Assembly: GCA_965178125.1 (NCBI GenBank)
Contig: OZ237766.1
Span: 248,001-312,000 of the forward strand
Origin: Bilabrum cf. latius
Lineage: Eukaryota
Direction: 5' to 3'
Length of the DNA stretch: 64,000 nt
The notes beneath the pieces are model-generated. The model was not told the origin of the DNA, made no database searches, and saw only the letters and a program-made list of their open reading frames with translations. How positions within the stretch are numbered: the first letter of the stretch is position 1; every line of letters starts with the position of its first letter. Of the stretch, positions 2-63,960 are shown piece by piece. Position numbers and translations under genes: made by a program.

Positions 2-2995
2 GTATGGGTCAATGCTGACGACACCGCCAGTGTAGATATGAAGCCTGCCCTGCAAAACTGGATACGATGACCTTGTTACGGCCAGAACGTCGGTGGATCC
101 TCGGCTGCTGTAGAGCTCGCGCACCTCGATCAGAGTGTCTGCCGCTTCGGGGAGGTGGGCCACTCTCGCATGAATGTTTCGCAGCTGGCTTCTTGGAGTA
201 AACACTCGTACTGTCACCTCATCGTGATCGTTGGGTGCGAATACCACGGCCTCGCCAAGCCTGCTTGTCGAGTGACCGGCGCGAATAGGCCAGTGGTCCA
301 GGCCAATAGCGTTCAAGCCGACTTGAAGCTCTCCTTGGTTCTGCTGACCCTGGAATAGTCCAAGAACATGTGTCTCGCGGAATGTGTCCATCCGAAGGAC
401 GAACCCGGGAGGCAGGAATTCACTCGTCTACACCCGTTCCACGAGAGAGTCTGCTGGCGGCGTGAGCGGACGCGGGACTGCTAGCTGGTCTAGAACGTCC
501 CAGTAGAATAGCTACCTACCAGACGGGCTCCGATAGAAACTAGTGACCACATCAAACAGCACGAAACGATCGCTGATTAGTCCAACGTACTCAGCGCGGT
601 AGCGAAGTACAGGTGCATCGGCCGCAGCCTCCGCAATGCCGGGTATCTGGCCATGCCTGACGACACCCGTGTCGAGATCTACAGCAGCTGGTGTGAACCT
701 CGTGCTCCACTTCTCAATGAACAGGAACCTGCTTCGCACCAGCACACCACCAGCGGTGTGCCCCTCTGCTGCATCCGGCTTACCGACCCAAACAGGCCGT
801 TTCACGCCGTCAAAGTACCACGCGTCTTGATTGCAACCCTGCAGCAGGTACCCGCCGTGCTAGACAGTAGCCACATAGTTCCCTTGCATGCATCTCACAT
901 CATCGTGGGATACGTTCCGTCGGGGCTGAGAACAGCCCCTGTCGCTGCCTGCATCGTACCCATCGCGCCCTTCAGTCGTGGACACTGGGGGCAGGCTAAG
1001 AAGATCGATGGGCCCCTCGCCTTCGCGCCCAAAGCACAAAAACGTAGGCCCAGAATTCGGCTTTCCATAGCTGTGCCAGCATGTCACCCCGACCTTGGTG
1101 ATCTCGTGCTTGCGAGCATCAATCTGCTAGAATGCGAACCGGGTGTCGATCCAATCCACCGTTGCTTGCTGTACGTCGGGGATATGAACACGGTGCGACA
1201 CCGAGGCTTCGCTGGTCATTCCGATCTCACTGTTCCAATCAATGCTAGTGACACCAAGGCCAGAAACTCTGTCCGGGGACAGAGAGCGTGATAGCACAAC
1301 TAGCGGAGGGTGGCCTGTGCTAGGGACAGCCACAGTCATCTCTGCGGCGGGCCACGAAGCGATTGCCACTGTTCCAACTGTGAGGAGCTCTGTGTTTCCA
1401 ATGCTGGTGGTGACTGGCACCATCAGCTGGGATGGAGTCGATCGGGTCATCATCAACATGCTAGGCCATCCAGTGCTAGCATCGGTTGGTTTTAGCTGCA
1501 CCACTGATTCGATGTCGCTGTCGAGTCGCCTGACATGCTGCAAAGCAGGAGGCTCAGACCCGTCCTAGACTGCGGCATACACATCATAGTACGTGGCAGA
1601 GCCCCACCGCCATGAACGAAGATATAGAGTCCTGCTGGCATCGGCCGTCCCCAGGAGAGACATCTTGGGGAATTCGTCCGGGGTCTGAGGGAGGCACTAC
1701 GCCGTTGCAGAGGCGGTATTCCAAACAAAATTGCACCGTATTGTGGGCTTATTGCGGGGTTTATCCACGTAACCCAACATTAAGCCGGTCCCGGGAGCAG
1801 GTCCGCTCGCGTGCACGTCTCTGGTGTCAGCTAAGTCGAGGGCAGCACCGTCAGTGTTTCGCAAAACGATCTTGGTTTCAGCTCCTGTGTTGAGCTCCAC
1901 GGCGATCTGCAACGTGTAGACGTTGGAGTCTACGTATGCCGCGTATGTCAACCGTGCGTCCCTGTGCGAAGCGCAGTGCAGTGCATCTCTCGACGCACTC
2001 GACGGCTGCCTCACGTACCGCGTTGTGCCATCGGAGGGACGCACGCATGCAGCACGAGTGGCCCCCCCGTGGGGCGCGAACGTGCAGATCCAGTCCCCGC
2101 ACGGCTTCAAAGCCTTCGAGGTTGAGTACGCGCTGTATGGCACCGTGAAGCCGCCTGAACCGGGAGTAAGATCCGCAGCAGGAGTGGCTACAGGTGCTGC
2201 AGAGCCACTGCCGCCAAAGGCGAAGCAGTACGGCTCCATACCCACCGCTGGGTCTTTGCCCGAGTAGAAGCACCCCATGGAGCCAGGTATAACGGTTATA
2301 CCAGCGTGAATTGAGGCTCCGCGAGACCCCGCCACGATGTATACCGTGGGATGTGATCCACCGGCTGCCTCGGCAGAGTCAGCACACGCGATCGCAGACC
2401 CCAAGTCGGCGACATCACTCGTCCGGGATCTAGGCACGAACTCTGCCACAATGCACACGGTACTGGGTGCAATCCACTCGGGTGCGTGCAGCACCGTCTG
2501 GATCTGAAGGTCAATGCTGCGGTTTTGTTCAGGCACCCAGAAGCTACCTGCCCCGTCCACTCTGCTCACCTGCCCGGTGGATTCCAGGAATACGTGCCAG
2601 GAGGTGTATCCACTGGGCTCGTGGGCCAGAAAGGAAACCTGGCTGGCTCCTTGGGCTGCAGCTGGTGCCACGGAGGACTCCCCGTACACCTCGCCCTGGA
2701 AGTCTACATCGACCGGCAGGGGCAGCTGGGTGGCAAAGTCGACATCCTGCTTGGTCCAGTAGCGGGGTACCTTGCCATAGCCGTCCCTAGTGTCGGCAAA
2801 GATGAGCGATCCGTTGGATAGCTGGACCATGCGGTGCAGATCGATGCTGTTTGGCTCAGTGGTGATTCTGTAGCCGGTTGCCGTAGCACTAGTGCCCGGC
2901 ATGGAAGTCCTTAGGTCGAGCTGTTGAATGGAGCTGGCTGCCGCAATGAGGACGGGCGCAGTCGCGATGAAGATGAAGAGAGCGCTGGGCTTCAT
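2..2995 (-). CDS. Large secreted protein with ELWxxDGT-like beta-propeller motifs; runs off the left edge
   Basis: Signal peptide MKPSALFIFIATAPVLIAAA. ORFs 1697-2995, 1127-1543, 860-1087 and 512-805 share one frame and are separated only by TAG (1697, 1565, 1127, 860, 512, 428). The frame stays open to position 2. Motifs GMEPYCF and ELYSSRGS resemble ELWxxDGT repeats. Confidence 0.7.
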
Positions 2996-3620: not shown

Positions 3621-4358
3621 TCACCAGGCGGGTGTGGTCGTTGGCTCTTTGAAATCACCCTTTGCCCGTTCCAGAAATGCCTCAACGTCCTCAATGCACT
3701 GCGTGAGCACTGCTCCATCTGCTGCACAACCACAGGCAGTGTCAACCTTCCCAAAGAATCCCCGGAGATGATTTGCAAGGTTGATCATGGAGTTGATTGG
3801 TGCCCACTGGAGTCCACCATGCGGATGATCCATGCACACTCTGCCACTAGAAAAAACGTGGGGATGGTATGGGATCTGTTTAAAGCTGATCTGCGGTTTT
3901 TTAAAGGGGTATTCCTCAGGAAGCTCGACAGCAACGTCAAGCGTGCGTCCTTTGTATGGGCTTTCGTAGGTCGTCCCCTAGATCTCGATCTCATCCTGTG
4001 CTACTGGCATGCCAATATGTATACTATGCTTTGGAATATGGGTAAACCATTTAAGGCTTGTAATGCTAGATTGGTCTTCTCTCACGGGAAGGGAAAGGTG
4101 CAGCACAAGCTCTCTTGGATTCCCTTCATCAAATTCGATGTAGCACCCATCCGTACGTTCAGTAAATGCTTCGGTTATCCACATACGACTCTCCTACGAA
4201 AATTTGATAGAATGGGAGCGTAATTTGTAGAAATGTGCATGGAGTTGAAGGCAATTCGGCCGCACAACACTCGACCTCACACTCATCAAGCGTCTTGAGC
4301 ACAAGGTATCGGCCACTGAACTGTCTGATTTCGCTGTGCTGGAGCTTGATGCAGCCAT
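3621..4358 (-). CDS. Ubiquitin-conjugating enzyme (E2/UBC family), spliced
   Basis: GTTYESPYKG...LPEEYPFKKPQISF...YHPHVFSSGRVCMD matches the UBC core with catalytic Cys. N-terminal SRRLMS. Likely intron ~4280-4194 (gtgagg...ttcgtag). TGA stop at 3621. Confidence 0.8.
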
Positions 4359-5207
4359 ATTCCGACTCTATGGTGTGTCGCCATCCCAAGGATCAGGGAA
4401 ACAACTTTGCCCCCCCCTTTTCTTCGAACGTTCGCCCCGTTCAACCGAAGCAATTTGCTTCAAGCAAAGCTGGACCTTCCTAGATCCACGGATCAACATG
4501 ACAAAACTTCATTGTTTGAAAAGCATGCGTGTACCACGTTTATGACTGCGTAGTACGTACAATTGGCGCTTTGCAAGGAAGACACGGTATCGCGAAATTG
4601 GCAGGGAGCCCACCTCAGGCTCATTGCCTCGCCGCGAGGGTTGGTGAGGCCAACAAGGTCTTTGAGATTGAGGTCGCGCATTGGGCGCAGTACCCCATCG
4701 AGGTGCAGGGGTAGATGCCACATAGCGAAGCGGAGGAGAGCACGGTTGATGAGGCAAGGCCAGTGAGGTACGATCAGGAACAGCGGCCGGGGGTGGGCCC
4801 GGTCTCTGGTCTCGCCGGGCCCTACCCATCCGATAGCAAAGTAGCAGCAAGGTGAGCCACAGCCTAGGGTGGGTGAGGGCGGAATAGTGGGAGGTGACCG
4901 TTCACCAAGCGGGTGAGGGATTAGCAGAGGAACATATGATCGGATTGGTGGGGTCGTCCGGATCTGACTGATAAAAAGGAGGAGGCACAGCCTGACAAAG
5001 TATTCCAGGCGGTTATTTATTTAGTTTCTTTCCGAATGGTGTGCGTGAATTATGCTGATAATGGCACTGTTTACTTAGGAATCAGTGCAACTTCCTGAAC
5101 ACACGTAAATCTCTCTTACGTAACCTTACGACTGCGAGGATCTACAATTACCGTAATGGTTTCGATACCGCCTCAGAAGTGGTATCGCATCTGGATTGAG
5201 GAAGTGC

Positions 5208-8200
5208 TCACGTAGCCACTGCGTTCTCACTGCCAGTGCGAGTGCCCGCCGGTGCGTCCTTGACGACAGCACCAGGTGCGTTGGCGGGGCAGCCGCAGAA
5301 GAAAATGAGCACCACACCCGCGATCAGCAGAATGGCACCAGTCACGATCAGCCCAATCATGATACCCGCACGGGCACTCTCCACCGAATCGTACGCCTCC
5401 TTGAGATCCTTCTCCGTCCCCGGGGTGGCCTCGTTGCTCTCCTCCGTCCACTGCAGCTGCACGTACACCTGCTCCCCGCCCGTGCCATCCGCCAGGCGCG
5501 GGTACATGCCGAAGGGGCGCAGTCGGAGCACACCCGCGAGCCTCCTCGCGGCACCGATGGACCGCCCCGAGACCGGGTCCACGTCGATGAACGAGCCGTG
5601 GGCCTCCTGCGTGGGCTCCTCGGCGTATCTGGCGCTCAGTGCCCGGATGGTCTCGTTGCAGGCCAGGTTGTTGGGCTGCGTGAGGAAGAGATCGAACTCA
5701 GTGGTGCTGTTGGGGTTGGATGCAGTGGCCTGCGCCAGCACGTACTCGGGGTGGGACCGCACGCTGACCATGCAGCCCTCGGGCGAGTTGAAGAGAACGT
5801 CGTTCTCGTACCGCTCGAAAGGGGGACTGCCCTCGTCCCCGTAGGCCGCCCTCGTCACACTCTCCACGTGGATGGCGTACCTCTGGATGTTCTCCAGCTT
5901 GCCGTTGGGGCCCTTGATGGCACCCCGCGGCTCGTTGGTGCCCGGCACTACGTCCTTGTACAGCCACATGAACCTCGATGCCTGGGACACCCAGATCTTG
6001 AACCGGAGAGGCAGGTCGCTTGGCTTGCTATCCAAGAGATTCTCGCCGTAGGGGTGCCTCAGCCCGTCGTATGACCCCTCAATGGAGATGGGGTCAGCCC
6101 CCATCCCAGACCAGTCCCTCAGCTCCGTCTGGCCCTCCACCGACTGGATCTGCCAGAACGTGTCACGGCCGCCGTTACCAGTGCCGATCGTCTCCGTGGT
6201 GCCTGCAGTGGCGTTGGACACCAGCGGAGGCACCATGCCCGCGTTCAACGAGGCCAGGATCGAGTCCCGGAAGCCGTCCAGCAGCAGCATGCGCGGGGTG
6301 GCCCTGATGTACGGCCCCGTTGCGAGGTTCCCGCTCGACCTGCCCGGCGTGGTGGCGGGCGTGGCCTCGGTGCCGTAGTACGTCTCCACCAGGTTGGGGA
6401 AATACACCAGCGCGTTGCTGCTGTGCTCCAGCCAGCGGAACACGTCGTGCACCTGGAAGCAGTCCATCGCTGGGATGCTGCTCGATACCGTGTCTTGGAT
6501 GGCCTGCCCGCACGCTGCGTGGAGCCCTGCATCTGCCGCCAGCGAGGTGGCATACCCGGTCACCTTGGCTCCCAGGGTCGTCGCCACGTCCCCATTGGCG
6601 GCCAGCGCGGTGATGTAGGCGGACTGCCTGGCAACTTGCGCGTCGATCGCAGTCATCATCGTCGCGTTGGTGGCGATGTGCTTCAGGTACGCAGCTCGGA
6701 ACCTCCACACGGCCTCGCTGCCCGCCCCGAAATCGGGGAGCGCGCTGCCAAGCACGGCAGATGCCTCGTTGAAGAGAGAAGGAGACGAAGAAAACTGTCC
6801 TAGGAGAGCCATGGCCGTCATGCCTGGCAGCTTGCTACCAGCGAACACGAGCCCGTTGCTGGAGGGATGCGCCCTCTGGCTGTAGATGGTGGGCGGGGCG
6901 TTGGCCAGACACGAGAACTCGGGGAAGCTGTTGAGCGTGTTGGGGTCGTTGATGGAGGCGAAGAGGGAGGCGGGTCCATTCAGGCAGGTGTTGGCGTCGG
7001 TGGCGGCGCTGCCCGCTGCCATGGGAAGCGTGATGGTGCCTGGCAGCTGCCCCCCGGCATGTGCAAGAGCTCCCGTGATGGTGTTGCTGCCGAACTGTGC
7101 CGCTGCTATGCCCACGTCAGATGCCGCTGGAAGCTCCACGCTGGCCTGCCCTAGGCTACCCAGGTATGCGTTGAAGACCTGAGGCACGACCTGGCCAGCG
7201 GTCGTGGTGTCGGGTCCCATGAGCCCGCCCATCATGAGGACGACCTGAAGCACGTGACCCGCGGCCACCTGGGGGTTGGAGTAGGAGGCATCCAGGCCGA
7301 TGTAGGCAGTGGCGAACTCCTGGGTCAGCCCCATGTAGGCCGGGGTGCTCATGGCCGCCTGCACGGCTGCGGCGTCGGTCGCGTCCACAGAGGCGAAGGA
7401 TGACGTCACTGCGATCCACTTGGGGAGTCCCGCCGCGGAAATGAGGGCGACTCCTGACGTGGAGGACGAGTTCATCAGGTCCATGTACACCCCGGCGGTG
7501 ACTCGGGTGCCCCCCGGCAGCGCGGGGGAGAGAGCCACCGCTGGATCCGCCGTGTAGCCAGCCGCAGTCCCTCCCACCTGAGCCTCGGCCTGGTCCGCGA
7601 ACGACGTGCTAGTTGTCGCCCTAAGCTGCATGAGGCGCATGGGCAGCACCACGGGCAGGACGGATGCTTTGAGGAGACCCACGAGAGAGGGCACTCCCGC
7701 CCGCAAGAACTGAGAGACGAAGAGCGGGATGGCGATGTCGTCCACCTGGATGGGGTCGCTGCCGCGGAGAGACACCGCCTGCTCCTAGTTCCGGTCTACC
7801 GCCCGGGCCGCACCCACAATGGTAGGAAGGAGGGCCCCGAAACCCGCGAATCCCACGTTGGGCACGACCAGGACCTCGTTGTCCAGCCGGGCCGGGTCAT
7901 CCACGTAGACGTACTCGGACTGGCTGTCCCAAGTGAGGCTGTCGTCGCCGTTGGAGTGGGTCGCGTTCTCGTACCTGGTGTACTTGCGGAACGCGTACGG
8001 CACGTTGGTCTGCTCCGGTCTTGCGCCGCCGTAGAGGGCTGCCTCGGGGTTCGTGATGTTGCTGATGTACACGATGTTGCGCACGCCGCCGTCCTCGTAC
8101 TGGTCGTCGTCCAGGTCGATGCTGTCGATCTGGTCGGCCCGCACGGTTGCGAGGCCGCGCTTGACGGGTTCCATCCGATTTTCAAATGCCTCGGAACCGG

Positions 8201-8616
8201 GAGTCAAGTATGTGTTGTCCTTGATGGTGTCCTCAAACGCGTTGTCAATGACACCCGGCAACACCAAACCGAGCACGATCGCAACGATGCCTAGCACAGC
8301 AACACTACTGCCCTGCGAGTACAGTTAGGAGAGATTTGGAAAAATGTGATGACAGCGAGTGCGTGAAAACTCTTGCAATTGCTGTCAAGACCATCACCGA
8401 TAGCCTTGGAACCAGCACAACACACCAAAATCAATATTGGCAGGCTGCTACGTTGTGAATGCTTTAGCTGTTGCCTGGCAGGCGAATGTTGAGCTAGCTA
8501 TTCACAAACATGTGTAAATCCGAAGCTGCTACCGCGGTACTACACATAGATTGTACATGGGTTGGGGTACCAGTCCAGATTACGCACACGGCGCGAGTTG
8601 GTAATGTGGCACACAT
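5208..8616 (-). CDS. CD36/scavenger receptor class B-like membrane protein
   Basis: N- and C-terminal TM helices. VYISNITNP...PYAFRK and FIDVDPVSG resemble CD36 motifs. ORFs 7785-8297 and 5208-7775 are joined by TAG at 7785. Probable short first exon MCATLPTRAVC from 8616, spliced to ~8313. TGA stop. Confidence 0.8.
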
Positions 8617-9257: not shown

Positions 9258-11414
9258 TCATACCTCAGCTGCCGGCTGGGTCGCACTGCCACTGTCGCCC
9301 TGGTCCTCGGCCTCTTCGTGCCCTGGCTTCTTTGCATCTGCATCGCCCGCAGTAGTTGTCGCAGCGGCAGCGGCGGAAGCAGCACCTCCGGATGACGCGG
9401 TGGTCACACCCATGCGAACGACCTCGCCCCCGTCGCCATCACTGCTCGTGCACGGTCCCTGGGCTGTAGGGGACGGTGCTGGGCCTGCATCATTGCCGGA
9501 TTCTCCACATCCCGCAAACATGAGAGAGAGGGGCGCCTTTGGGCCGCCGCAGCACCCCGATTCCGTGATCTCTGCGGGCTTGTGCTTCGTCCCAAGCTTG
9601 GGTGCTGTGTAGCCATGGCCTCGCTGGTCTTCGTCCAGCTTGTCGATTGCGCCGGTGCGAAAGCACAACAAGCCTTCGTCTTTGGACAGGTAGGCGGCCT
9701 CGTCTTCGCTGAGAATGGCGGGATCGTAGGATGCTAGAAGCTGTTCCATGGCAAGGGCTTCCCAAACGGCAGCCACCGGTGCCTCCCACGCCTCGACCTT
9801 GCGTATAGGCCCTGACGGGTCCATGACGATGGCCAGCGCCCCGCTTGCCCATGATGCGCACACCATGACGAGTGCCAGCCCGCAAAACGTAATGCCGATG
9901 ATCACGGCGGCAGTGCTCAGCCACTTGGAGTCTTGGTCGCCCACCAGTGAGCTGCCTTGCTCCATCGCATCAACTACCTCGCTTTGCAGCAAAAGCACGA
10001 GACCGAGCCCCACGTCGCTCAGCGCTGCGATCACAACGTGCATCGCAAGCCATCGCGCTACTTGCACAGGCAAGTAAAGTTCCTCCAGCGTGTAACTTGT
10101 AGCGGAGCTGGCGTCATTTATGCCGTCCATACCCTCGTCAGTGGCCTTCACGCCGGGCAGTGCGTATTCTCCAAGATAGGCCCCCATGGCCTTGACAAGC
10201 GCCTTGGCGCAGGATTGCTTTTTATCGTCGTCACCATCGTCATCATCCTGCTTGCTTTTGCTCTTGTCCCCGCTCGACTTGCCTGCCGTCCCAGGAGGCA
10301 TGACAGCCCTTTCCTTCTTGCTGGCCAGCACCGTTGCCTCCGATATTGGCATCTCTCTTGAGTACCCCATGTCCTAGGATCGGGCGATCCACAAAGAGAA
10401 CGCAGCAGTGGCGGCAGCTCCTCCGGGTCCCATGCCTGCAACAGTCCCAAAGAACAGAGCAGCGGGCACGACAGACATGAAGAAAGCCACAAGACCCCCG
10501 CACACGGAAGTCTCTCGCGCGCCTGTGCAGGGGCCGATGCACTCCGAGACGGACACGAAAAGAGCTGCAAGCATGAGACCGACGCACCAAATAGGTGACG
10601 AGAGACACACAACCGCAATCCGACCCGCCGCTACGCCGACCAGAATATCAGCCGCGCTGTCCGTGACGTTCGTGGAAGGCGGACTTGGCACCAGCGCGGT
10701 CTAGTTGCCCTGCGACAGGCTGGTGCCGTTCAGCATGGTGGAGTTGCTCGGTAATCCACCGTCCGCATCGCCAGAAAGAGCCACGGAAACGTCGTAGAAT
10801 GCAGCTGCAACCCCGATGGACTGCATGAAGGCCCCTGCAGTGGCAAAACCAGCGGCGTGCCCCACCCACATTCCGCTGGATCGCAGCTGCACGAATTGCT
10901 TGAGGCTATAGCGCGTCGGCGCCACGCAAAGAAGGTCATCAACGGAAGCGGGCACCTGCAATGGGGGTATGCGTTCCAATAAGCCTCTTTGCTTCCATCC
11001 CTTCCTCTCCTGTTCGAGCCGGTCAGTGAATTCCACCGGGGCACCCACGATGGAGGAGAGGACTGGCGACACGACGTCGCGCACCGTCCCATACGCACCC
11101 CAGGCAGTTTGAACGAGGGCCAGGATGAGAAGGATACTCGCTTGGAGTGCTTCCCTGTCAGAATCGTCGCGGCTCGCCTATGCAGAGGGGTCGGCCGACT
11201 GGGTGTCTGAGGTGCCACCTGCACCGTATACTTCTCTCCGCATGCCCTGCAGGACGGAGAAGAGGGCCACCTTTGCCACGGACGACATGAAGGAGCTGAA
11301 GACGAAGGTTCCTTGCGCAATGATGTCTTGAGAGGGCCTGTAGATGAGCGGCTGGTGCACTCGGAGCCTGCTCATGATCACCCGGGCTTCCTCGGTGCCA
11401 TCACACTGAGCCAT
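9258..11414 (-). CDS. Multi-pass membrane protein of unknown function
   Basis: Four same-frame ORFs joined by TAG at 11178, 10701 and 10374. Several hydrophobic helices. TGA at 9258. Start approximate. Confidence 0.7.
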
Positions 11415-12791
11415 CACGGGCTGACAGGGGTAGATGCATGGACAAGCATGAGCTCTAGATCTATAATCTGCAAATAATAATGATTCAGACTGATCAAAAT
11501 AGTGCACTTTGGTGTTGGGTCGGTAGTACTCGGTACAGGGAGCGACTGGCCACCGCCAGCAGTTGACAAAGCATCTCACGAGCCATCCAAGAAAAAATTG
11601 CGGTCAAAATGATTTGTAGCGATGCGAGTGCCTTGAGCACGTCGAGTATCGATCTGCGGTAAGGCGAAAGAAGATGAACTTGGCCGTCTTGAATCGTGCA
11701 CCATCGGAATGCCCGGCGCCGATCTAATTCCCAGGGTGTCCTTACTCTCCACGCGATTCGGCACCAAGGGACACCAAATCATCAATTGCGGATTCTGTAG
11801 ATGAAATGTACAGCCAGTCGATGACGATGATGTCTGCGTAAGAGTCGAAAACGTTGGGACGCGTCTCGCACTAGATAGAATGCAAGATCAACAATCAGCG
11901 GTATTCGTTCACAATTCACAAGCAGAACTTACAAATAATGTTGACCATAGCATAAAATGCCACAACAGTCTGACTGTTTATCCTACAGCAGTCCTCATCG
12001 AAGCAGTATGTCTCCATTGGATTGCTTGGGGAATGGACTGCGAGCCTCGGGTCGGTACGCGAAGCATGCAGTCGAAGCGTTGCAGGTGCTTTGAATTGCG
12101 ACAATTATCATCACTGCAGCATATTGGTAACATTCGAGGGGCGGTACTCATCTTACGGTAAGCGCAGACCCTGTCTGACCCGAGTTGCAAAATACCTTGG
12201 CTTGGTCCGTTTAGCCTGCAAATCGCAGATTTTCAACACGAAACTGCACGCAACTACATTCAATCTGAGCTCTGGAGATAGAGGAAGGCTGGGGTCCGCA
12301 TGTCACGACTAGCCTGGTTCGCAGGCAAACGGACGGGGTGAGACGTGCGCTAGACTGCTGTAGGATGGGCCATTCAAGGCCGCACCCGGCCTTGCCAATG
12401 GATGTAGTCGTGTCGCACCGATCCACAGGGAGCTGTTAGCGGCAGTGTATATCCAAATCATGAAGCACACTGTCTATGAGTCAAATGGCTTTGTGATGCC
12501 GTGGGTTGCCACGAACACGCGCAGGCGCAGCAAGGTACCGCCATGTAACTCTGCAAAGTCCCTGACAGGCGGAAGAAGAATTGGTTCTTTGTGCGCGCTG
12601 AATTGACTGTTAGGAAGTCTCGCTCTCATCAGGTAGCCAACGTCTGGATTGCCAGATCATCTTTAGCCCAGATGGCCAAGTTGCAAATTTCGAACGTTCG
12701 TTTCGGTCGTGGCGAACCAATGATGAGAATCGGTGACGCCCCGTCAAGGTTCCTCCAATATCATATTGTTTCTATCTATACCCCGGTCCCA

Positions 12792-13889: not shown

Positions 13890-14567
13890 TCATCTACCAC
13901 CACGGGCCCCACTTGCACTGCTCTCTGCCCCCCTTGCTGCCACGCTGCTCGACTTCGGGCTGCCTGCAAACAGGGGTCGCAGCAGGCCCCTGCCGGTTTC
14001 TGTGGAGCCGAGCAGGACGCCGACACCGAACAAAGCCACGCCCAGGCCCGCCACTAACGCAACCCGCTGCATTTCTCTCCTCTTGTGCAGGTGGAGCACC
14101 CAGTCTGCCTTCATCTTCGCGTGCTCGTCCGATTTGTGCTGCAGGTGCACCAGAAACCCATTGAATAGCTCCTCCCGAGAAATCCAGCCATCGTGGTTGG
14201 TGTCCATAGCCAAAAATACAGCTTCTACCACCGCGATCTGATCGTCGATATTCTGGGACGTAAATCCGAGTTCCTCCAAGAATCCAGCGGCCTTTGGGTC
14301 GATCTTTGGGTTCGAAAGGACCGAGCTCACGAAACGGAACAGCTCTGCTGGAGTGATGTGACCGTCTTTTGCACCTTCGTCATTCGACATATCGATTTCA
14401 TCGAAAACATAGTCAGATAGCGCACGGGCCGACATGATTGCTGCGGTTCGCTTGCCCACCATAGATTGGAAAGCCTTCTATCCTGCCTGCTGGATTGCCC
14501 TGCCCGGCGATTGGGGTGTCGTGGGGGGTTTGGCAGCGGAAGAATCAGTAGCGGACGACGATGCCAT
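13890..14567 (-). CDS. EF-hand protein with C-terminal TM helix
   Basis: EF loops DMSNDEGAKDGHITPAEL and DTNHDGWISREEL. TM VALVAGLGVALFGVGVLL. The N-terminus extends through TAG 14478 to ATG 14567. TGA stop. Confidence 0.75.
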
Positions 14568-14722
14568 GGTTTTGGTCGCGTTCACGTTTGCAGAGACTCT
14601 GTTCCAGGGATTGCAGAATTGAGGCCGAAACCCGGAACGTTCCATGGTGTTCGTTTGGAAAACGATTCAAGCACACTTCCATCCAAGAGTATGCTGCTTG
14701 CTACCCTCAGAACTTCCTTATC

Positions 14723-17716
14723 ATGGTGAATCTGATATTAATTGCGCTCCAGCTTGCGGTCTTGGACGTTTCTTGGGCCGAAATCAACGACCAAGGCCAT
14801 GTATCTGATGCCGAACAGCGGCGCGAGCTACCGCCCAGGCAAGAGGATCAGCAGCCTGAGGGATCGACTCTGCGCGCGTTGATTTATTCTGCTCATGCAT
14901 ACCCATTCTATAGACCCGATTTAGTGGACGAGGTGGAGTTCGAAGCCATCGATCTCAAGGATTGGGTGTTTGTGCCGGGCGACGACGAGCACTACTTGAA
15001 CACCAAGACGGGCGAGACATCATGGGTGAACCCTGCCCTTACGCAGGCAGCCGAAAACGTTGAGCGCAATCAGCTGTACATGCACCAGGACGCCTACGAG
15101 GCAGAAGCGCACGCCGCGGATGTTTACATGCTCGGGAGGACGCAAGAAGAGGAGGAAGCCGCGCTGCGGATCAGCTGGCGCCTGTACGACGAGACGCTTT
15201 AGTTCCGGGGATTTCTCGACGACCTTCCCGCGATCTAGAACCGCGCTCGCATCCCACGGGCGCCTCCTGACAGGGCGAGCATGAGGCGCATCGCGAAGCT
15301 GGCCGGCGTGTTATTTGACGTGGCTCAGATCCGGCTGGAAGTTGCCGTGTACAACATCGAAAGAGAGGTGTTTGCCCGTCTGGGAGCCAGCGGCGCGCTG
15401 GGTACGGCGGGGGAGGAGCATGCCAGCTGGGAGGACGGGGGCACCGGGCTTGGGGGAATAGAGGAGGGCCGAGGGGGTGGCGAGGGTGCATCGCACGGAG
15501 GTGCGCCCACCGAGCAACGCGAGACCCCTGGTGTCGTGTCTGAGGGAACACAAAAAGAAAGCGGGGAGGACGATGCAGCGGGATTCGATCTGGAGGCCCT
15601 CACAGCGAGCCTTTGGGAAGATGAAGACGTAGACGAGGAGGAGCATGACCGGATCCCGGCAAGTATTGCATCGGTCGATGACGCATCGCATGCGGGGGCA
15701 CAATCTTCATCTTCATCTTCGTCATCGTCGCAGGCCATGGACCGGCTTCTCGCCTCTGCGATCCACCAGAAGATGAGGGAGCAGGACCAGTCGGACTCGG
15801 AATCAGACTAGGATTCGCAGGGTGCGTCTGTGGAGGACACTACTGGTGCAGGCGGCAACGAGAAAGAGGAGGAGGAGGAGGAGGACGAGGTGCTGCCTGA
15901 GCGGATCGATCTGGACTCAGTAGACGAGAAGATAGCACAAGAGAAAAAGGTACTCAAGAAAGGATTGATCGCTGAATAGCCGAGGGAACAATCGAGTGCA
16001 ATGAGTGCTGCTGGTGAAGCAGATGCCCTTGGTGCACTGCACTCAGGCGACATCCACATGCCCGTGGACAAGCCCCCCCCGGCGGTTGCAACCGAAGACA
16101 GGGTGCTCCTGGCAGGGGCCCTCAGCGACCTGGGCAATTTCTGGTTCGCGCGGGGAGAGTGGCACCTGGCCATCGATTGCTTCCGCAGGTCACTCTTCTG
16201 GAACCCTGAGCACACGGCGACGCTGATCAACCTGGCCAGCGTGTTCGTCCGTCTTGGGTTCGAACATGACGCCGACACGGTGATGAAATACTACAGGCGG
16301 GTGGAAGGAGGCACCATGGGCGGGTGGGAGGTGTCCGAAGAGGATAGGCTGCAGCGGGGGATCGATTTCGGTAAGAGGCTGTCCCAGCTGATGGGGGGCA
16401 AGACCGTCGGGCAGCTAGTCCTGGACGGCGACATCGATACCCTGGCTTTGCTGAAGACGCTGCAGTACCAGCCGCAGCTGCAGGAAAACATCCAGTACGC
16501 TTCGTTGGACTCGTGCGGCGGCGCCTAGGGCGGTACCAATGATGCTGGCGTGCTGGACGACGGCATGAAGGAGATCGAGGGAGCTGGGGCGACGTCTGGC
16601 GCTGCACATGCTGGCCGCCAGATGGCTCATGATCCGTGGCTGCAATCGATGATGGAAATTGGGGGTGCTAGTGAAGGTGATGGTGATGGGGAAACCGGCA
16701 GCACCCAGACAAGTGGCCCGTTCCAGGTGCCTGCGTTGGAAGAGGCAGACGAGGTGCTGCGCTCGTTTGACTCTCACGAGAGGCTCCTTGAGATCGGCGG
16801 AACCGGGAGCTTCCCCACGATGTAGCAGGCACAGGAGCAGTTCGAGAGCTTCAAGACGTACCTGACTCGGATCACGGGAGACCCTTCTCTGGTCCCTGGT
16901 CACGGCCTGCAGGAGTACAAGAAGGCATGGCAGGAGCTGATCCAGGAGGAGGGGTCATACACCAAGGGTGTGACGAAGAGGAGGAGTGCGGTCGATGCGG
17001 AGAGGAGGCGCATCGAGGCGGAGACACCACCGGGCGGCTCCTACTCGATCTCGCCCGAGACCCTCCGCGGCTTCAACATCGCGATCGAGGGGGCGGTGCT
17101 GGGGCTGACGACGCAGAGGGAGGACGAGGAGAAGGAGAGGCAATCGGCGGCGGACGAACGTTCGCGAACCGAGGCGGCGGCGGCGTCGCTGCCGAGTCGA
17201 ATCGCGGGTGAAAGTGCAGGGCATGGTGGTGCGAACGGACGCCTATCTCAAGAGGCTGTTGCAGCCATGGACGCGTCCTCTGTTTTGGACGACGTGGCCG
17301 TGCTTGGATCCGTGGATGCTTCGCTTTCGTCGTCGGAGCGGGAGGGCTGGAGGGTACGTCCCGGGGTGGTTGGGGATGATTCGATCGGAGCTGTGGGGTT
17401 AGATGCCTCACTCGACGATGGGGCGGAGGGGGAGGGGGGCATGCCCCTGGACGAGCTGGCTGGGCTGGGACTTGGGCTGGTGCTCCTGGTGGGAGGCTTG
17501 GGATACGTTGCGGTGAGGAGCGGGTGCACTGCACGGTGCTGCCGCTGCTGCTGCTGCAGGGGGCAAACGGGGGAGGCGGTCGCGAGGGAGAAGAGCGGGG
17601 CAACATGGGGTGGGACTGGATCGGCAGCTGCCTCGCCCGCGGGTGGTGGCACCAAACCTAGCCAGAGCAAGGGCAAGGGCAAGGGGAGGGGCCGGCGAGG
17701 TGGCAGGCGGCGCTGA
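14723..17716 (+). CDS. Type I membrane protein with signal peptide, WW-like domain, TPR and C-terminal TM (~997 aa)
   Basis: Five ORFs in one frame joined by TAG at 15200, 15236, 15809, 15977, 16526 and 16823. WW-like DWVFV...HYLNTKTGETSWVNP. TPR ALSDLGNFWFARGEWHLAIDCFRRSL. TM LAGLGLGLVLLVGGLGYVAV. TGA stop. Confidence 0.8.
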
Positions 17717-18472: not shown

Positions 18473-20616
18473 ATGCAGGCGGCAGAATTTGCTCACGAGT
18501 TTGAATCTCATGGAATTATTGATGAGGTTGGGAAGTCGCTTAGTTCTAGGCTCGACCGCAGTCAAGTTGTACCTCCTGTAATAATTAAAAGTATGATTTG
18601 GAATGAATGCCTGCACTTGATTGGCATATTTGCTGCCATTGCTATCGATGCAAACAGACCGCTTCACGTTGGTTGGCCTGGCACATGGCTCCAAGTCAAC
18701 AGCAGAGGCGCGCAGTCTCATTGCGAGATAGCCTGTGCCATCCCAGCTGAAATAGTTATGCGCATTCGGGGAGGTTCGCAAGTGTCTCACCGACGACAGT
18801 GCGTCGCGTTTCGTATTGCCAGGGAGCTGCCACTCGCCCCTCAGGCTTCCAGTACAGTTACGGTGGAAGGCGAAAACTTTGCCTTATATACGGCCAACCC
18901 CGCATTCATTCGTATCAATGTATCTATATACGGTAATGACGCCACTGAACGCGGTGGCAAACGTTCACCAGGCTCGAAATCGGTCTCTCTGGAATGCGAG
19001 CCAAGGGCGGGGACGATGCAACATCAATGCCATGACGGTCCTGCCGCTGGTGCAACCTAGGGGCAAACTGAAGGTGCAGCCAGTGTGGATGGTACACCCT
19101 CCAAGCAGTCAGCAGGGCACACCACGTCGTCTGGCAAGTCGCAACATCCAGGGGAAGGTGGAGCTGCACCAGCGATCGTACACGCTGGTCTCGGTCGCGC
19201 CCATGCATCGCCGGCTGTGTCAGACTGGATCGTGGTGCTAGGCCCAGATTTGGGCCAGCGTGAGGATCTGGGCCAGTCGGAGCGTGCGAACAGCATAGGT
19301 GCCAGCAGCATAGGTGCCAGCAGCATAGGTGCCAGCAGCAGGGACGGTGGCACGGGCACTGGCTGGGACGAGCGACTCCGTGAGGCATTTTAGGGGGGTG
19401 TTCCGATCGAATGCTGTATAGATTCGCTGTACGCGCTGGATGGCCACGGCGGCGGTGGATCGGTTCGCACCTCTAACACAGGTGCTGGCGCAAGCCCACC
19501 CAGTGGCGCCAAGGCTGCAAGGGGGCAGGGGATTAGCAGTATCAGTGGTGGCGACGGTGATGATGGTGGTGAGGCCAGTAGTGGTCATGCCAATGCAGTG
19601 CATAGGATTCATGCAGTCCCGGTTGATGCACCGCAGTGCAGTGCCCCTGGAAGCGCCGCTCAGCTGCAGCTGCTTCGGCTCATGGCCGTGGACCCATCAG
19701 CTGGCCAGCCATTTGCGACCAGCTCTGGAGCAGGTGACTCTACCCGACGCAGTTCCTCAGTTGGTGGGTCATTATTCACCAAGAGCCAGTCCAGTGCAGG
19801 GTCCACCGGTGGATTGGCCACCCACCGACGGCCTGACCGGTGCGGTCCCACAAGCCAGAGCGATGCATGTCTCCGGTCCGTCCTGGACGCCTTCGGGGGA
19901 GGTGACCCCATGCTGCGGGGGTATGACGAGAGCAGGGCCCCCAGGATGGGGTCATACATTGGTTCCGCTGGGACTGGGCGCGGCGCTCCCGGCGCTCCCG
20001 CTACTGGAGGGTAGAGGCGCGGGTAGGCGCCAGGCATCGACGGGTGGGGCGGGGACAGAGCAGGCAGTTTGCGCGGCACCAGTTCCGCAACGTCGGTGGC
20101 CAGCACCAGCACAAGCCGATCGCTCGACACCGCCACCCGCATGCGGAACCGGCGCCGCGCATCCGGACAGTCGAGCGACGCCGACACCCTCCAGCGCCTG
20201 CTGCCAACCGGGGCGGGCGCCTCTGCCAGCTCCTCACAGCCGGGCCAGCCCCCCCCCGCTGCTGGGGGGATGCAGGGGTTGCATGCTGGCGTCAGGGTGG
20301 TATCCTCTCGAGGGGGCTCCTCGGTGGGCTCGTAGCCCAGCCGGCGGTCGGCAGGGGGCGCCGCGCATTCGCTTGGTTCCGCAGCCCTCGCCCCGTCCGA
20401 GCCGGCCTTCGAGGTCTCGTCTGGGCACAGCTCCCGTTACTCGAAGAGGAAGAGGGAGAGGAGAAACATGAGGATGCAGAGGAAGAGGGGGGATGGGGGG
20501 AAACCTCCGACGCGGGGGATACCTGGTGTGACGAGTGCGGGCGTGGCGTCTAGAGGTGGCCGTCGCGCCGCACTGCTGGCCATCGCACGGTCGCAGTCGG
20601 CGATGCACCAACAGGC

Positions 20617-20662
<46 letters not shown>

Positions 20663-21250: not shown

Positions 21251-21347
21251 TTGGGTAAGGTGCATTTTCTGGTTTCTTGTTCTCGGTGACGACGTGGCAC
21301 CTCGACGATTACTCACACATACATCTGCAACAGTTTACATTGCAATA

Positions 21348-26516: not shown

Positions 26517-26840
26517 GCCCTCAGAGTGGCATACAAAAGGCAATTAGAGCAGCAGGAGGTTGAAGTTACCTTTGTCGACCGATGGGTCTGGCCGGGGATC
26601 CACGGATCCAATGATACTGGGGCTACCAGCACACTCAATAGCCCAAGCAGCCTAATGTCTGATAATTAAATACAGTTCATATCGAAGCGGGGGTACACAT
26701 GCTCGATGCAGTGTAAATTGCGACACTGCCTGGACTTCTAGGTATGCAACTCGGAGCAAGCCGTCGATTTGGGACCAGTCCCAGTACTCACGTGCAATTG
26801 ATAGAATGTGTATTGACAAATCGCCAGCAGTGTAAACAGT

Positions 26841-27905: not shown

Positions 27906-27959
<54 letters not shown>

Positions 27960-58047: not shown

Positions 58048-61000
58048 TCACTCCCTCGGCACCTCACACTGCATTTTGCCCAAGGACATATTCACGTACA
58101 TCACATCCCCATCATCTCCCACCATGCGTTTCCAACCAGGCGGCAGGGGCGGTGCTGGTGGCCTGACCCCCTCCCTCCTCTCCGCCGGCACCCATCGCTG
58201 TTCCCTGGGCCCCGACCATAACCCGCTCCCCCCCTCACCGTACGCACTCGTCACACGGGCCAGAGAGGCCACGTGCCCACCCACCCTCCCGCTCGCACCA
58301 TCCCGCCCCAGCAGCTCCCGCCGCAGGTGCCTGTCCCACAGCGAGGCCTCACCTGCCACCAGAGGACGCACCCGGCCCAGCACGCCCTCCACGCCCCACC
58401 CGAAAATCGCCCGCGTGCCTGCGCTCGGGGGCCGCAGCACGGCCATGGGCCCCGCCTGCACCACGGCCCGCTCGGCCTCCCCGCGGTCCTGCAGCACGCC
58501 GGCCCCCACTGCCTCGGCCAGCTCCCCCTCGAAGGCATGCCCGCCCACCACGCCCATGGAAAGACCATCCACTGCCCCGGCCACCTCACTCGTCACACTG
58601 CCTCCCCCCTCCACCGCCCCGTCCCTGGCAATTGGCCCCAGCTCGTCCGCGGCCCGCAGCACTGCCTCCTCCATCAGCAGGTCAGCGGCTGTCTGGCCAG
58701 AGGATTCGGAGCCATCGGCGGGGAGTATTGGTGCTGGTGCTGGTGCTGGTGCTGGTGCTGGTGCTGGTGCTGGTGCTGGTGCTGGTGCTGGTGCTGGTGC
58801 TGGTGCTGGTGCTGGTGCTGGTGCTGGTGCTGGTGCTGGTGCTGGTGCTGGTGCTGGATCGTCTGCCCCTGCCCCGCTCGCAGCAGGGCCACGCTCCTGA
58901 GGTGCCGCTGCAGCACCATCATGCGATGCACCCGTCCCCCGCTCCCGCTCCCTCACCGCCTCTCGCCCCACCAGCGAGGCTAGTGGCAGAGGACCCATGC
59001 ACTCGTCAGCATGAGCAAGCAGAGAACGCTGCCCAACCACCCACGCACCGCAAGCCGCATCGTCCACAGACACATCCCCTGCACCTGCACCTACACCTGC
59101 ACCTTTGGAGTCAGACCCGCCCTGTGACGGATGCACCCCTCCCCGCATCAGCACACCCGCGTCCACCGGCCCGTACAGCATCCCCATCAGCGCCCCGATG
59201 GCCTCCTCCTGGGGAACACGGGACCGGGGGTGGGCCTAAAGCAGGCCCCGCAGCACGGCCTCCAGAGCAGGGGGACAGTCCGCCTGACTGGGCAGCCGAG
59301 GGATGTCCCTGTCTCCGTACATGCTCTCGGGGTCCGGCAGAGACACGAGTGCCCCGCCCCCGGCATGCGCCTGCTCCGCCATCAGCTCCCACACCATCTT
59401 GCCTGCTGCCCACGCATCGCTGGAAGCATACGCCTGCGCCAGCGTGCGCATGGGTCTGTCCCACGCGTCAGTCACCTGCCCCCCGCTGGCCCTTCGCCTC
59501 ACCTCTGGGGCCATGGCACCCATGCCCCCCTGCATGCTCAGCACAGAGACCGCCAGCAGGTCGGGCTGAGCGTCCTTGCCGCAGCCCACGAACGGCCAGG
59601 CGGTCGATGATGGTGGTGAGGATAATGACGGTGATCCAGATGATGGCAATGCACCCTTGCTGCCCTCCTCTGTTGCAGCCGTGGGTGCAGCTGGTGGCCC
59701 CGATGGTGCGGCAGTAGGCACCTGCTTGCTGGATCCTGCAGGCGCGCTAGGATCGTCCTCGCCCTCTTCCACCACGAACACGCCCGGGTCCGACTCTTGC
59801 ACCTCTACCTGCTTTCCTGAGGTTGCATCCGGGGCTGTAGTCGATGATGCCCCGGCACCTGCTGCAGAGCTTGATGCTGCAGTCGCACTTGAACCCGACA
59901 GGCTTTCACCAGCCCGCTCGTCCTGCTCCTGCTGCATCATGAGGTTGATGCGGGCCCTCAGCGTCTCGTCCACCTTCACTCTCAGCCCGCCCTCAAACAG
60001 CAAACAACCCTCCCCCCAGTCGCCCAGCACGGCCCGACCGTCCGCCGTTAGAAACACGTTGTCCGCCTTCACGTCCCGGTGCACCACCCCGCGGGACCGG
60101 GCGTGCTGCAGGCCCTGCAGCACCTAAAGCAGCCACAGAGCCGCCTGCCGCCCCGAGATCATGCCACCTGCCCGCAGCGCCGCTTTCGCCGCCCCCTGCA
60201 GCGTGGTGGGGAACCGCTCCGTCAGCATCCAGGTGGTGCGCCTGCGGGGGATCCAGCCGAACCAGGGCAGCATCAGCTGCGTTGAGCCCAGCCAGGCGTG
60301 GTGCACGGCAAGCACATTCGGATGCCCGTGCAGCACCACTCGCCCCCTACTGTCCACTCGATCCCCCAGCACCCTCGGCAGCAGCCAGTCGTGCTGCTGT
60401 TTCTGCGCCACTCCAGCGTAATAGTCCCGGTCTGGACCCCCCGAGGTTGACCCCTTCAGCACCAGGTGCTGCCAGCCGGCCCACGGGTTGATGCCTGACC
60501 CAGCTCCACCATCGTGCGGTGCACCCTTAGCACCACCATCCGGTGCATTGGGCTAGTCCACAGCCACCACGGCAAAGACCAGCCCGTTGCACCCCTGGCC
60601 CTCCGCCGCCTGCTGCCCCGCCACGGCCCCGAAGACAGACCCGTCCCAGAACAGAGGCCTCTTCCTGCCCTGCTGCCCCGCCTCCAGCCGACCGGGAGTG
60701 CCCCCCCGTCGCTGGCTCTGGCCCCCGTCCTGCACCCGGATCCACCAGGCTCCGCTCCACTCGGCCCCCAGCCGCTCCAGCACGCTCACATCACCGACGC
60801 TGCTGGGGTCCATGTGCGCGGGCTGTGAGCCAGTGGCTAGGATGAGCTTGGGCCGTGGATGGTGCGCGGTGAGGTCGCCAGAAACGGGTCCGTTGGCGGG
60901 CTGATTGCGGGACAGCACCGCCTCCATGTGGGCCTGGGGCAGGGTAGAATTGGGCGTGTCAGGGTCTGCCGGGCTGGCTCTGGCAGCGGCTGCCTGGGCC

Positions 61001-63960
61001 AGTCGGACGCCGGCGTGCTGCAGGGCGTACCGGGCTTGGGCGGTAGCTGTACACCTGGATTTGAATAACTGCAGCTCACCACGGCACACGAGTAGCTTGT
61101 ACCTTGTGATCGCCTCTTCTTGAATGGCACGCAGATTGGCACTCGATGCCGAAGTTGACAGTGTGATCTCACTGGCCTACTTCGCGATTTGTACCGTGTC
61201 CAATCCCTGCACAATTGGTATGCCGGAAGTATCGCACAGCTTTAGTAGCAGATAGAGCGACAATGTGGATGACCCCTGCCCTCTGGTCATGGCGTCCTTG
61301 AAGCCGTTTGGGGCGTCGTCTGGGACCAACTGGGCGGGAATCTTTCCATCATTTGACTTGGATGTTGTGCTAGCTCCGTGATGAAGCAAGGCAACTGCGC
61401 ATCCTACATGCTTATTCATACATGCATTATGGAGCGAGGCTTTGCTCTACTTGTTATTGGCCTCGATCTGCGCCCCCTTGGACAGCAACAGCTCGCACAC
61501 GGATGCACAGCCATTGAAGGCAGCTAGTGCGAGGGGCGTGTTTCCATCCTGCGAGGGACTCACGAGGGGAGCAGACCTTAACACAGCTAGGCAGTGCCCT
61601 GGTACAGGCATCGCAGCAGAAATACACCGATCGAAAGCATATCCATCACAGGCCAGTCAGGTGCACCCAAGCCAGCTCCAAGTCCATCCACGACTTGCAT
61701 CAAACCAACCGGCTGGCTTCCTCGCTAGCCAACACGTATCTAGGCCTCAGTCAAAAGGAGCGAGTGACCTTCACTGCCGCGTCGCATGTAGTGGAATCAT
61801 TGGATGTGCCTCGGGCGATTTGAAGACAGACAGTATGCATGCATATCTCACCTTGCTCTTGGCCTCGATCTGCGCCCCCTTGGCAAGCAGCAGCTCGCAC
61901 ACAGAGGCATGGCCCTTGGCAGCAGCCCATGCGAGGGGCGTGTCTTCATTCTGCGAGTAACTCTGGAGGGGAGCAGACCTGAACAAAGCTAGGAAGGGCC
62001 CTGATACAGGCATCGCAACACAGATATACCAATCGAAAGCATGGCCACCACAGTTCAGTCAGGCGCACCCAAGCCAGCTTCAAGCCCGTCCACGACTTGC
62101 ATCAGACCAACCGGCTGATTTGCTCGCTAGCCAACCAGCATCTAGGCCTCAGTCAAAATCAGCGAGTGACCTTCACTGCTGTGTGGCATGGTGTGGAATC
62201 ATTGGATGTGACACGGGCGATTTGAAGACAGACAGTATGCATGCATATCTCACGTTGTTCTTGGCCTCGATCTGCGCCCCCTTGGACAGCAACAGCTCGC
62301 ACACGGATGCATGGCCATTCCTGGCAGCCTATGCGAGGGGGGTATTTCCGAACTGCGAGGGACTCATGAGGGGAGCAGACCTTAACACAGCTAGGCAGTG
62401 CCCTGGTACAGGCATCGCAGCAGAAATACACCGATCGAAAGCATATCCATCACAGGCCAGTCAGGTGCACCCAAGCCAGCTCCAAGTCCATCCACGACTT
62501 GCATCAAACCAACCGGCTGGCTTCCTCGCTAGCCAACACGTATCTAGGCCTCAGTCAAAAGGAGCGAGTGACCTTCACTGCCGCGTCGCATGTAGTGGAA
62601 TCATTGGATGTGCCTCGGGCGATTTGAAGACAGACAGTATGCATGCATATCTCACCTTGCTCTTGGCCTCGATCTGCGCCCCCTTGGCAAGCAGCAGCTC
62701 GCACACAGAGGCATGGCCCTTGGCAGCAGCCCATGCGAGGGGCGTGTCTTCATTCTGCGAGTAACTCTGGAGGGGAGCAGACCTGAACAAAGCTAGGAAG
62801 GGCCCTGATACAGGCATCGCAACACAGATATACCAATCGAAAGCATGGCCACCACAGTTCAGTCAGGCGCACCCAAGCCAGCTTCAAGCCCGTCCACGCC
62901 TTGCATCAGACCAACCAGCTGGTTTGATCGCTAGCCAACACGTATCTAGGCCTCAGTCAAAATCAGCGAGTGACCTTCACTGCTGTGTGGCATGGAGTGG
63001 GATCATTGGTTGTGACACGGGCGATTTGAAGACAGACAGTATGCATGCGCATCTCACCTTGTCCTTGGCCTCGATCTGCGCCCCCTTGGACAGCAGCAGC
63101 TCGCACACTGAGGCATGACCATTCAAGGCAGCATGTGCAAGGGGGGTGTCTCCATTCTGCGAATGACTCTGGAGGGGAGCAGACCTGAGCAAAGCTAGGA
63201 AGGGCCCTGGTACAGGCACCGCAGCAGAAATACACCGATCGAAAGCATATCCATCACAGGCCAGTCAGGTGCACCCAAGCCAGCTTCAAGCCCGTCCACG
63301 ACTTGCATCAGACCAACCAGCTGGTTTGATCGCTAGCCAACACGTATCTAGGCCTCAGTCAAAATCAGCGAGTGACCTTCACTGCTGTGTGGCATGGAGT
63401 GGGATCATTGGTTGTGACACGGGCGATTTGAAGACAGACAGTATGCATGCGCATCTCACCTTGTCCTTGGCCTCGATCTGCGCCCCCTTGGCCAGCAGCG
63501 GCTCACACACGGAGGCATGGCCATTCCTAGCAGCCAGTGCGAGGGGGGTGGTTCCATTCTGCGAGGGACTCATGAGGGGAGCAGACCTGAACACGACTAG
63601 GCAGGGTCCTGGTACAGGCATCGCAACACAGATATATCAATCAAAAGCATAGATACCGCAGGCCAGTAGGGTGCACCCAAGCCAGCTTCAAGCCCGTCCA
63701 CGCCTTGCATCAGACCAACCGGCTGATTTGATCGCTAGCCAACCAGCATGTAGTCCTCAGTCAAAAGGAGCGAGTGACCTTCACTGCCGTGTGGCATGGA
63801 GTATGGCCATTGGATGTGACCTGGGCGATTTGAAGACAGACGGTATGCATGCGCATCTCACCTTGTCCTTGGCCTCGATCTGCGCCCCCTTGGACAGCAG
63901 CAGCTCGCACGCCAACTTCCAGCCGTTTGCTGCAGATTTAGCCAGTGCTGCCCACTGATG
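58048..63960 (-). CDS. Ankyrin-array + PINK1-like protein kinase + C-terminal WW domain; 5' end lies beyond the window
   Basis: Ankyrin exons start at 63960, 63558, 63156, 62754, 62352 and 61950, then a long exon 61548-58048 read through TAG 61447, 61177, 60553, 60124 and 59236. Motifs GQGCNGLV, VLK, HPNVL, HRDVKADN, DWG, GGMGAMAPEV, DAWAAG. WW LPPGWKRM...YVN. TGA stop. Confidence 0.9.
58730..58857 (+). repeat. (GGTGCT)n hexamer repeat (Pro-Ala on the coding minus strand)
   Basis: About 21 perfect units. Confidence 0.95.
61450..63960 (-). repeat. Tandem array of exact 402-bp units (99-nt ankyrin exon + 303-nt intron)
   Basis: Exon starts are spaced exactly 402 bp. An 804-bp two-unit block is nearly identically duplicated. 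Confidence 0.95.

Follow-up and report, generated by a model that had tools for sequence, protein, structure and literature searches.

The stretch of DNA analysed here, a 64-kb window of contig OZ237766.1 (positions 248,001 to 312,000 of the forward strand; assembly GCA_965178125.1, Bilabrum cf. latius), carries long protein-coding genes whose reading frames are crossed repeatedly by TAG triplets, and the meaning of this codon is the subject of the present work. GC content across the window runs from 54 to 71%, the introns of its genes are few, short and of the GT..AG type, and among the proteins encoded is CFAP65, which belongs to the central apparatus of cilia and flagella. The window is part of the nuclear genome of a GC-rich eukaryote able to form a motile cilium or flagellum; an earlier reading of the bare sequence (hereafter the original prediction) had suggested a GC-rich flagellate as host. 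That reading had also proposed that UAG is translated as glutamine while UAA and UGA still terminate, a proposal that our analysis makes likely.

Reading frames and gene content of the window

Under the standard code, the longest frames in the window measure 1660, 858 and 669 codons; when TAG alone is released they become 3414, 1403 and 1202 codons, and when TAA alone is released frame lengths are nearly unchanged. With TAG read as sense, 13 long gene frames were defined, ranging from 559 to 3388 codons and comprising 13,219 codons in total; 12 of the frames bear between 1 and 9 TAG each. The in-frame counts over these codons are 59 TAG, 0 TAA and 0 TGA, whereas in the +1 and +2 frames across these regions the counts are 162 TAG, 65 TAA and 459 TGA. 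TAG thus makes up 24% of the off-frame stop triplets, and under that null the probability that all 59 of 59 in-frame stops are TAG is ~1e-37. Because TAA and TGA together fall once per 60 codons by chance (all frames), frames of 559-3388 codons that are free of both are not chance products.

The original prediction had described a fragmented frame track joined into long proteins by about 60 TAG in 15 genes, with 18 gene ends (14 TGA and 4 TAA). The joining and the number of TAG are borne out, the TAG at 27048 in sirtuin exon 1 bringing the 59 to 60; the genes in question are 12 of the 13 long frames together with sirtuin exon 1, and the ends that could be traced number 13 (10 TGA and 3 TAA), fewer than proposed, none of them forced to TAG. 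The four codons singled out at conserved positions (27306, 27048, 60124 and 59236) are all TAG and all in frame. If read as glutamine, TAG accounts for ~11% of the Gln codons in the window genes, which are listed in Table 1.

Table 1. Genes and gene parts of the 64-kb window (window positions; TAG counts are in frame).
Feature	Position	Strand	Domain matches and composition	TAG	End
Sirtuin exon 1, GAGISTACGIPDFRS motif	26880..27055	+	Pfam SIR2 1e-07, solved-sirtuin matches; 5' limit uncertain	27048-27050 (EP-Q-E)	
Sirtuin intron	27056..27154	+	99 nt, GTAAGT...CAG; holds TAA in frame at 27057, plus TGA		
Sirtuin exon 2	27155..30398	+	Pfam SIR2 1.8e-30	7	TAA
Ankyrin + PINK1-like kinase gene	58048..61611	-	Pfam Pkinase and Ank	5, including 60124-60126 and 59236-59238	TGA
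CFAP65	34961..45127	+	3388 codons, intronless; 16 Pfam families	36368, 37379, 42362, 44195	TGA
Secreted protein, family unknown	2..2995	-	Signal-peptide-like start	6	Runs off window
Ubiquitin-conjugating-enzyme-like gene	3621..4499	-	Pfam UQ_con 1e-12	3, only 3980 at domain	TGA
CD36-family membrane protein	5208..8297	-	Pfam CD36 2.5e-19	1 (7785-7787)	TGA
Membrane protein, family unknown	9258..11579	-		3	TGA
1092-codon frame	14438..17716	+	WW-like + TPR-like	8, first two perhaps upstream of true start	TGA
Low-complexity protein	18473..21250	+		7	TGA
Glutaredoxin gene	21348..21872	+	Pfam Glutaredoxin; exons 21348-21447 and 21628-21872		TAA
Glutaredoxin intron	21448-21627	+	180 nt, GTAAGT..CAG		
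Bulb-type lectin, multi-copy family	22555..24234	+	Pfam B_lectin, three domains	4	TAA
cAMP-receptor-like GPCR	24534..26543	-	Dicty_CAR	2	TGA
934-codon frame, family unknown	31709..34513	+		9	TGA

TAG at conserved glutamine columns

The residue encoded by TAG was sought by masking each TAG as X and aligning the products to solved structures (PDB). In the sirtuin, TAG 27306-27308 stands at the Q position of CYT-Q-NIDGLE, the TQNID motif, and the masked TxNID column holds Q in all four alignments listed. The two TAG of the PINK1-like kinase lie in the contexts LLxVLQGL and GLLxAHP, where human PINK1 has LLQLLEG and ALLQ; Q occupies both columns in the three PINK1 alignments listed, and the first of them in EGFR as well. 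Of the conserved TAG columns covered by these alignments, a small total, 3/3 (in two proteins) hold Q. The domain matches themselves run across TAG in three cases, the Pfam matches to SIR2 (residues 15-119, TAG at residue 65), to Pkinase (residues 460-536, TAG at residue 496) and to Ig_CFAP65_4th (8.4e-60; residues 423-497), the last spanning TAG 36368 at residue 470. A further TAG, at 20660 in the low-complexity protein, follows immediately 3' of (CAG)13 in a polyQ tract.

The original prediction had also placed a TAG at the Q of a sirtuin PQxxFD motif (27048), next to those of TQNID, LLQLLEG and ALLQ. While the latter three stand in the masked alignments, the fourth is weaker: splicing out 27056-27154 is needed to give EPQEIFDIRRF, and the alignment of exon 1 to solved sirtuins stops before the column, leaving the site consistent with glutamine.

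A low-complexity stretch of ~300 residues, with a poly-Ser run and Arg-Gly repeats (window 27520-28400), is inserted into the catalytic domain of the sirtuin, and the protein carries a C-terminal extension of ~650 residues. A perfect hexamer repeat, (CTGGTG) x 21.8 at 28636-28766, encodes (Ala-Gly)n in the sirtuin frame, and another, (TGGTGC) x 21.5 at 58729-58857, encodes (Ala-Pro)n in the kinase frame. The ankyrin exons of the kinase gene extend upstream to at least 63958. Two tandem arrays occupy the minus strand, one at 49235-56656 (period 408 bp, 18 copies) and one at 61450-63910 (period 402 bp, 6 copies), and each unit consists of one ankyrin-repeat exon of ~99 nt and an intron of ~300 nt, so that exon and intron have been duplicated together. 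The latter array forms the 5' part of the kinase gene, and the units of the former differ in reading frame. Among 20 ankyrin exon units there is one TAG, at a variable column.

TAA and TGA as terminators

If UAA shared the meaning of UAG, the A/G ratios of the CAR, AAR, GAR and TTR codons of these genes (A form 19-29%) would predict between 14.0 and 24.1 in-frame TAA; none is seen, with a P(0) of 3e-6 to 2e-9. In-frame TAA at a frequency similar to that of TAG was named in the original prediction as one outcome that would contradict it, and the 13,219 codons hold none. Three of the 13 traced genes (lectin, sirtuin and glutaredoxin) end at TAA and the other ten at TGA. The TAA of the glutaredoxin gene matches the C-terminus of Chlamydomonas GRX2 (7ncv), residues 2-78 of the 80 in the query aligning with residues 32-106 of the 107 in the chain.

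When TAA is read through, no genes merge: the lectin grows by 9 codons and the sirtuin by 139-140, and 106-114 codons are gained upstream of two starts. On a codon model that gives genes +17 per 100 codons, the added sequence scores -29, -21 and 0. A model trained on TAG-free pieces only gives -16.8, -8.6 and -18.8 for the 50 codons beyond each of the three TAA ends. Across both strands, a single TAA among 475 has coding-like flanks, and this is the TAA within the GTAAGT donor of the sirtuin intron. A symmetric open-flank test, in which TGA or TAA was taken as the sole stop, gave no discrimination, since GC-rich DNA yields long open frames by chance. The action of TAA as a stop in the window genes is supported by the other results.

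A CFAP65 orthologue with an in-frame TAG

CFAP65 matches the solved FAP65 at 1.5e-58 and has 1085 homologues in the protein database. A second metagenome scan recovered an orthologue from a related species on contig Ga0136560_1021489 (hereafter L001; 1793 nt, 59% GC), which is open for 479 codons up to the contig end and contains one in-frame TAG, at codon 149, with 0 TAA and 0 TGA. The two proteins are identical at 348 of 477 residues (~73%), and their genes differ at 98, 73 and 274 nucleotides in codon positions 1, 2 and 3, respectively, corresponding to 188 synonymous and 129 non-synonymous codon changes. Divergence that remains dominated by third positions past the TAG indicates that purifying selection at the protein level persists downstream of TAG in both species. 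The relative, too, has TAG in frame, which places the change of code before the split of the two organisms.

The same orthologue is present in the database as two pieces, P0021 and P0012, the first of which terminates exactly before the TAG; this split is the expected effect of a standard-code gene caller. A scan of genome contigs with CFAP65 found no relative, and no alignable homologue covered the two C-terminal TAG of the window protein.

At 3388 residues, CFAP65 is nearly double the 1847-residue CFAP65 chain of PDB 9ijj. It lies in a stretch of 70% GC, with Gly/Ala-rich low-complexity inserts padding its length, and great length is also a feature of its best database homologues (2621 and 2911 aa). 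Among solved structures, both CFAP65 and the glutaredoxin match Chlamydomonas proteins best; in a database as sparsely sampled as the PDB, this would offer a weak lead only toward a green-algal affinity of the host.

The window in public sequencing runs

The window sequence was found in public runs of four studies under four organism labels, and no run listed as RNA was among them. Contigs were compared over the region 14438-28600, which holds 25 TAG, for the longest pieces listed. Zero-mismatch contigs of runs X1, X5 and X7 cover at least 16, at least 16 and at least 9 of these TAG, respectively, all unchanged, and one such X5 contig (14686-17391) retains 6 TAG of the 1092-codon frame. In X7, one contig passes from 21447 directly to 21628, a joint with GT..AG ends at which the glutaredoxin intron is removed; pieces from X5 have the acceptors 21628 and 27155 as their exact starting points, and the depth of X5 varies several-fold between genes. 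We read the X5 and X7 contigs as spliced-looking transcripts that keep UAG. The original prediction had asked that transcripts leave UAG unedited, which holds for these zero-mismatch contigs insofar as the runs, whose RNA type is a guess, are RNA. Run X1 shows a 3-nt deletion relative to the window at 17288, in a coding region, which represents an in-frame allele or strain difference.

Other genes of the window

The window also encodes a DsbA-like protein and a SOUL-domain protein in addition to the UBC-like protein of Table 1. The gene with the SOUL heme-binding domain has at least two exons (45367-45900 and 46071-46367, minus strand) and lies in a lower-GC part of the window. No Pfam match was obtained for the 1092-codon frame, and the N-terminal part of the CD36-family protein had no match in the PDB.

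The lectin gene is a member of a high-copy family. Over its region (22479-24370), summed contig depth in runs X1, X5 and X7 is ~10-100x that of the neighbours, with many variants at 90-99%, and run X8, which carries a different organism label, matches the lectin family alone, at ~90-95% identity. A partial lectin copy at 30638-31176 on the minus strand, 93% identical over 533 nt to 23095-23639, sits directly beyond the 3' end of the sirtuin and probably represents a gene fragment; the part common to the two copies is free of TAG. A protein homologue search with the lectin returned 9 distant matches (24-33% identity), and a metagenome scan with it returned no relative.

Weighing the reading of UAG

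The core of the original prediction, in which UAG is sense and most likely stands for glutamine while termination stays with UAA and UGA, is upheld by the masked Q columns, the absent TAA, the glutaredoxin end at TAA, the unedited contigs and the TAG of L001. A number of observations weigh against it. The assignment to glutamine is based on three conserved columns in two proteins and on the polyQ context. In CFAP65, column 470 is variable (T19, R15, P15 ... Q8 among 118 homologues) and L001 has Arg (AGG) there, column 807 is variable too, and opposite the TAG of L001 the window has Glu (GAG), the column reading E33, S25, R21 ... Q8 among 143 homologues; such variable columns would say nothing for or against glutamine and may leave small room for Glu. 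The zero count of in-frame TAA and TGA is partly a consequence of how the frames were delimited, for which reason the status of TAA was tested in four ways. About five TAG (14462, 14549, 4370, 4196 and 19058) are close to 5' ends, where the codon model scores the sequence as non-coding, and possibly fall in untranslated region or intron. This model separates coding from non-coding sequence only weakly, with 30 of 54 TAG having a positive downstream score in its non-circular form, and is used in support only. The RNA type of X5 and X7 is guessed, X5 being flagged "probably DNA", and the case for splicing consists of one joint and two piece boundaries. Neither a decoder nor a release factor was seen in the window, eRF1 not being among its genes. 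Finally, two TAG of the lectin lie 15 and 12 codons, and two of the sirtuin 66 and 58 codons, upstream of TAA, where TAG might terminate.

Termination at those sites, with a TAG stop followed by a stretch that is open by chance, would make UAG ambiguous, sense within genes and a stop in some of them according to its context, in the manner of Condylostoma, karyorelict ciliates or Blastocrithidia; at gene ends without homology, a TAG end is not disprovable within the window. We consider such ambiguity improbable, since 9 of the 11 complete genes with TAG stay open for a further 118-858 codons after the last one, where chance spacing is 60, and all 13 traced ends are TGA or TAA. Known ambiguous codes, moreover, also involve UAA and/or UGA, and codes without dedicated stops, of the Condylostoma or Blastocrithidia type, have three stops in frame, of which TAA and TGA are both at zero here. 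It is decidedly unlikely that UAG specifies some residue other than glutamine, be it Glu (its meaning in an oligohymenophorean ciliate), Leu or Ser. Each of these meanings is in print (PMC11687900), the window has Glu opposite the TAG of L001 in a column that is most often E, and L001 has Arg opposite TAG 36368; however, the three conserved columns are Q rather than any of these residues, for the sirtuin in every alignment listed, a TAG comes right after (CAG)13, and Q is present in both variable columns too.

A code in which UAA and UAG both mean Gln (the UAR code, NCBI table 6), with UAA made scarce by GC-richness, would take the usual form of stop-to-Gln reassignment, reported in Amoeboaphelidium protococcarum (PMC6299283) among others, and would suit a window of this base composition in which TAA is the rarest stop triplet. 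That code is nevertheless very hard to maintain: the A form reaches 19-29% in other A/G-ending pairs and the 14-24 TAA so predicted are absent, three genes end at TAA, one of them backed by the C-terminus of a homologue, the sequence beyond each TAA is non-coding-like, and the sole TAA with coding-like flanks is an intron donor. The notion that the TAG are not translated at all, whether through pseudogenes, assembly or sequencing error, UAG-to-CAG RNA editing or introns, strikes us as barely credible. Introns can conceal in-frame stops, as 27056-27154 does with a TAA and a TGA, and the ~5 TAG near 5' ends do lie in non-coding-like sequence. Decay or error, however, would yield TGA and TAA too, against in-frame counts of 59/0/0 for TAG/TAA/TGA; three runs of separate studies yield contigs, some of them spliced-looking, that carry the same TAG without a mismatch; and the third-position divergence of the two CFAP65 orthologues (98/73/274) extends past TAG in both.

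Relation to known codes

Reassignment of UAG alone is rare, as the original prediction held, but it has precedents: UAG is reported to encode Gln, with UAA still a stop, in Iotanema spirale (Fornicata) (PMC5304391; PMC9161772) and in the ciliates Protocruzia tuzeti, Hartmannula sinica and Trochilia petrani (PMC11687900). Iotanema has the identical code table, is likewise a non-ciliate flagellate and carries a T32G change in eRF1. It is, however, an anaerobic endobiont with a reduced mitochondrion-related organelle, whereas the window encodes a PINK1-like kinase and combines high GC content with conventional GTAAGT introns. We infer that the window organism is distinct from Iotanema; it looks like an aerobic organism, one with a PINK1-like kinase.

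The three ciliates share with the window both the change of UAG to Gln and the retention of UAA as a stop. In these ciliates UAA is reported to be the preferred stop, used by 58.8-86% of genes in phyllopharyngeans with the standard code, and UGA the rarest (PMC11687900). The preference of the window is different, with TGA at 10 and TAA at 3 of 13 ends. Typical ciliate macronuclear DNA is also unlike the window in GC content and in its introns of 99-300 nt. The UAR = Gln code (table 6) is found in many ciliates, hexamitid diplomonads, some ulvophyte green algae, oxymonads and Amoeboaphelidium; it has UAG to Gln in common with the window, but UAA is sense there and here is a stop that is absent in frame.

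In other lineages UAG alone has passed to a different residue, to Leu in the rhizarian exLh and in uncultured phyllopharyngeans and to Ser in Scotinosphaera. In these codes UAG is likewise uncoupled from UAA, presumably via a tRNA with a CUA anticodon, whereas the conserved columns in the window are Gln. We take the window code to be formally NCBI translation table 15 (the "Blepharisma" code), in which TAG = Q. A "genetic code 15" is described for crAss-like phages (PMC9523058). In those phages TAG is Q too, but their release factors are of the prokaryotic type, RF1/RF2, and the window is eukaryotic nuclear DNA. Eukaryotes rely on a single release factor, eRF1. In the literature searched, with subscription journals and supplements outside its scope, UAG = Gln was reported for no GC-rich flagellate other than ciliates and fornicates.

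A possible route to the code

No tRNA gene and no Rfam family was detected within the 64-kb window. Following arguments in PMC5304391 and PMC11687900, together with established knowledge, a route to the code can be proposed. A tRNA-Gln whose anticodon had changed from CUG to CUA, by one change, would read UAG; a CUA anticodon would be unable to wobble onto UAA, and UAA would therefore keep its meaning. If eRF1 recognised the third-position G of UAG less well, it would no longer compete there. UGA-dominated termination in a GC-rich genome may have left few genes reliant on UAG, easing its capture.

Implications

The window organism and the species of L001 may belong to a GC-rich, aerobic, flagellated clade of at least two species, neither ciliate nor fornicate, in which UAG alone came independently to mean Gln and UGA is the main stop; we put this forward tentatively, as plausible while falling short of probable. 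If true, no GC-rich genome before it would have shown a case of this kind, and the clade would offer a natural test of the idea that UGA-dominated termination leads to the capture of UAG. Codes that split UAG from UAA are natural experiments on how one release factor discriminates between near-identical stops, and few are in print. A GC-rich lineage with UGA as its predominant stop and TAG at ~11% of its Gln codons would add an independent data point, of opposite base composition. There is a practical side as well: because standard-code gene callers cut proteins here, as in the CFAP65 of the relative, broken at its TAG, the annotation, phylogenomics and metagenome binning of this lineage need table 15.

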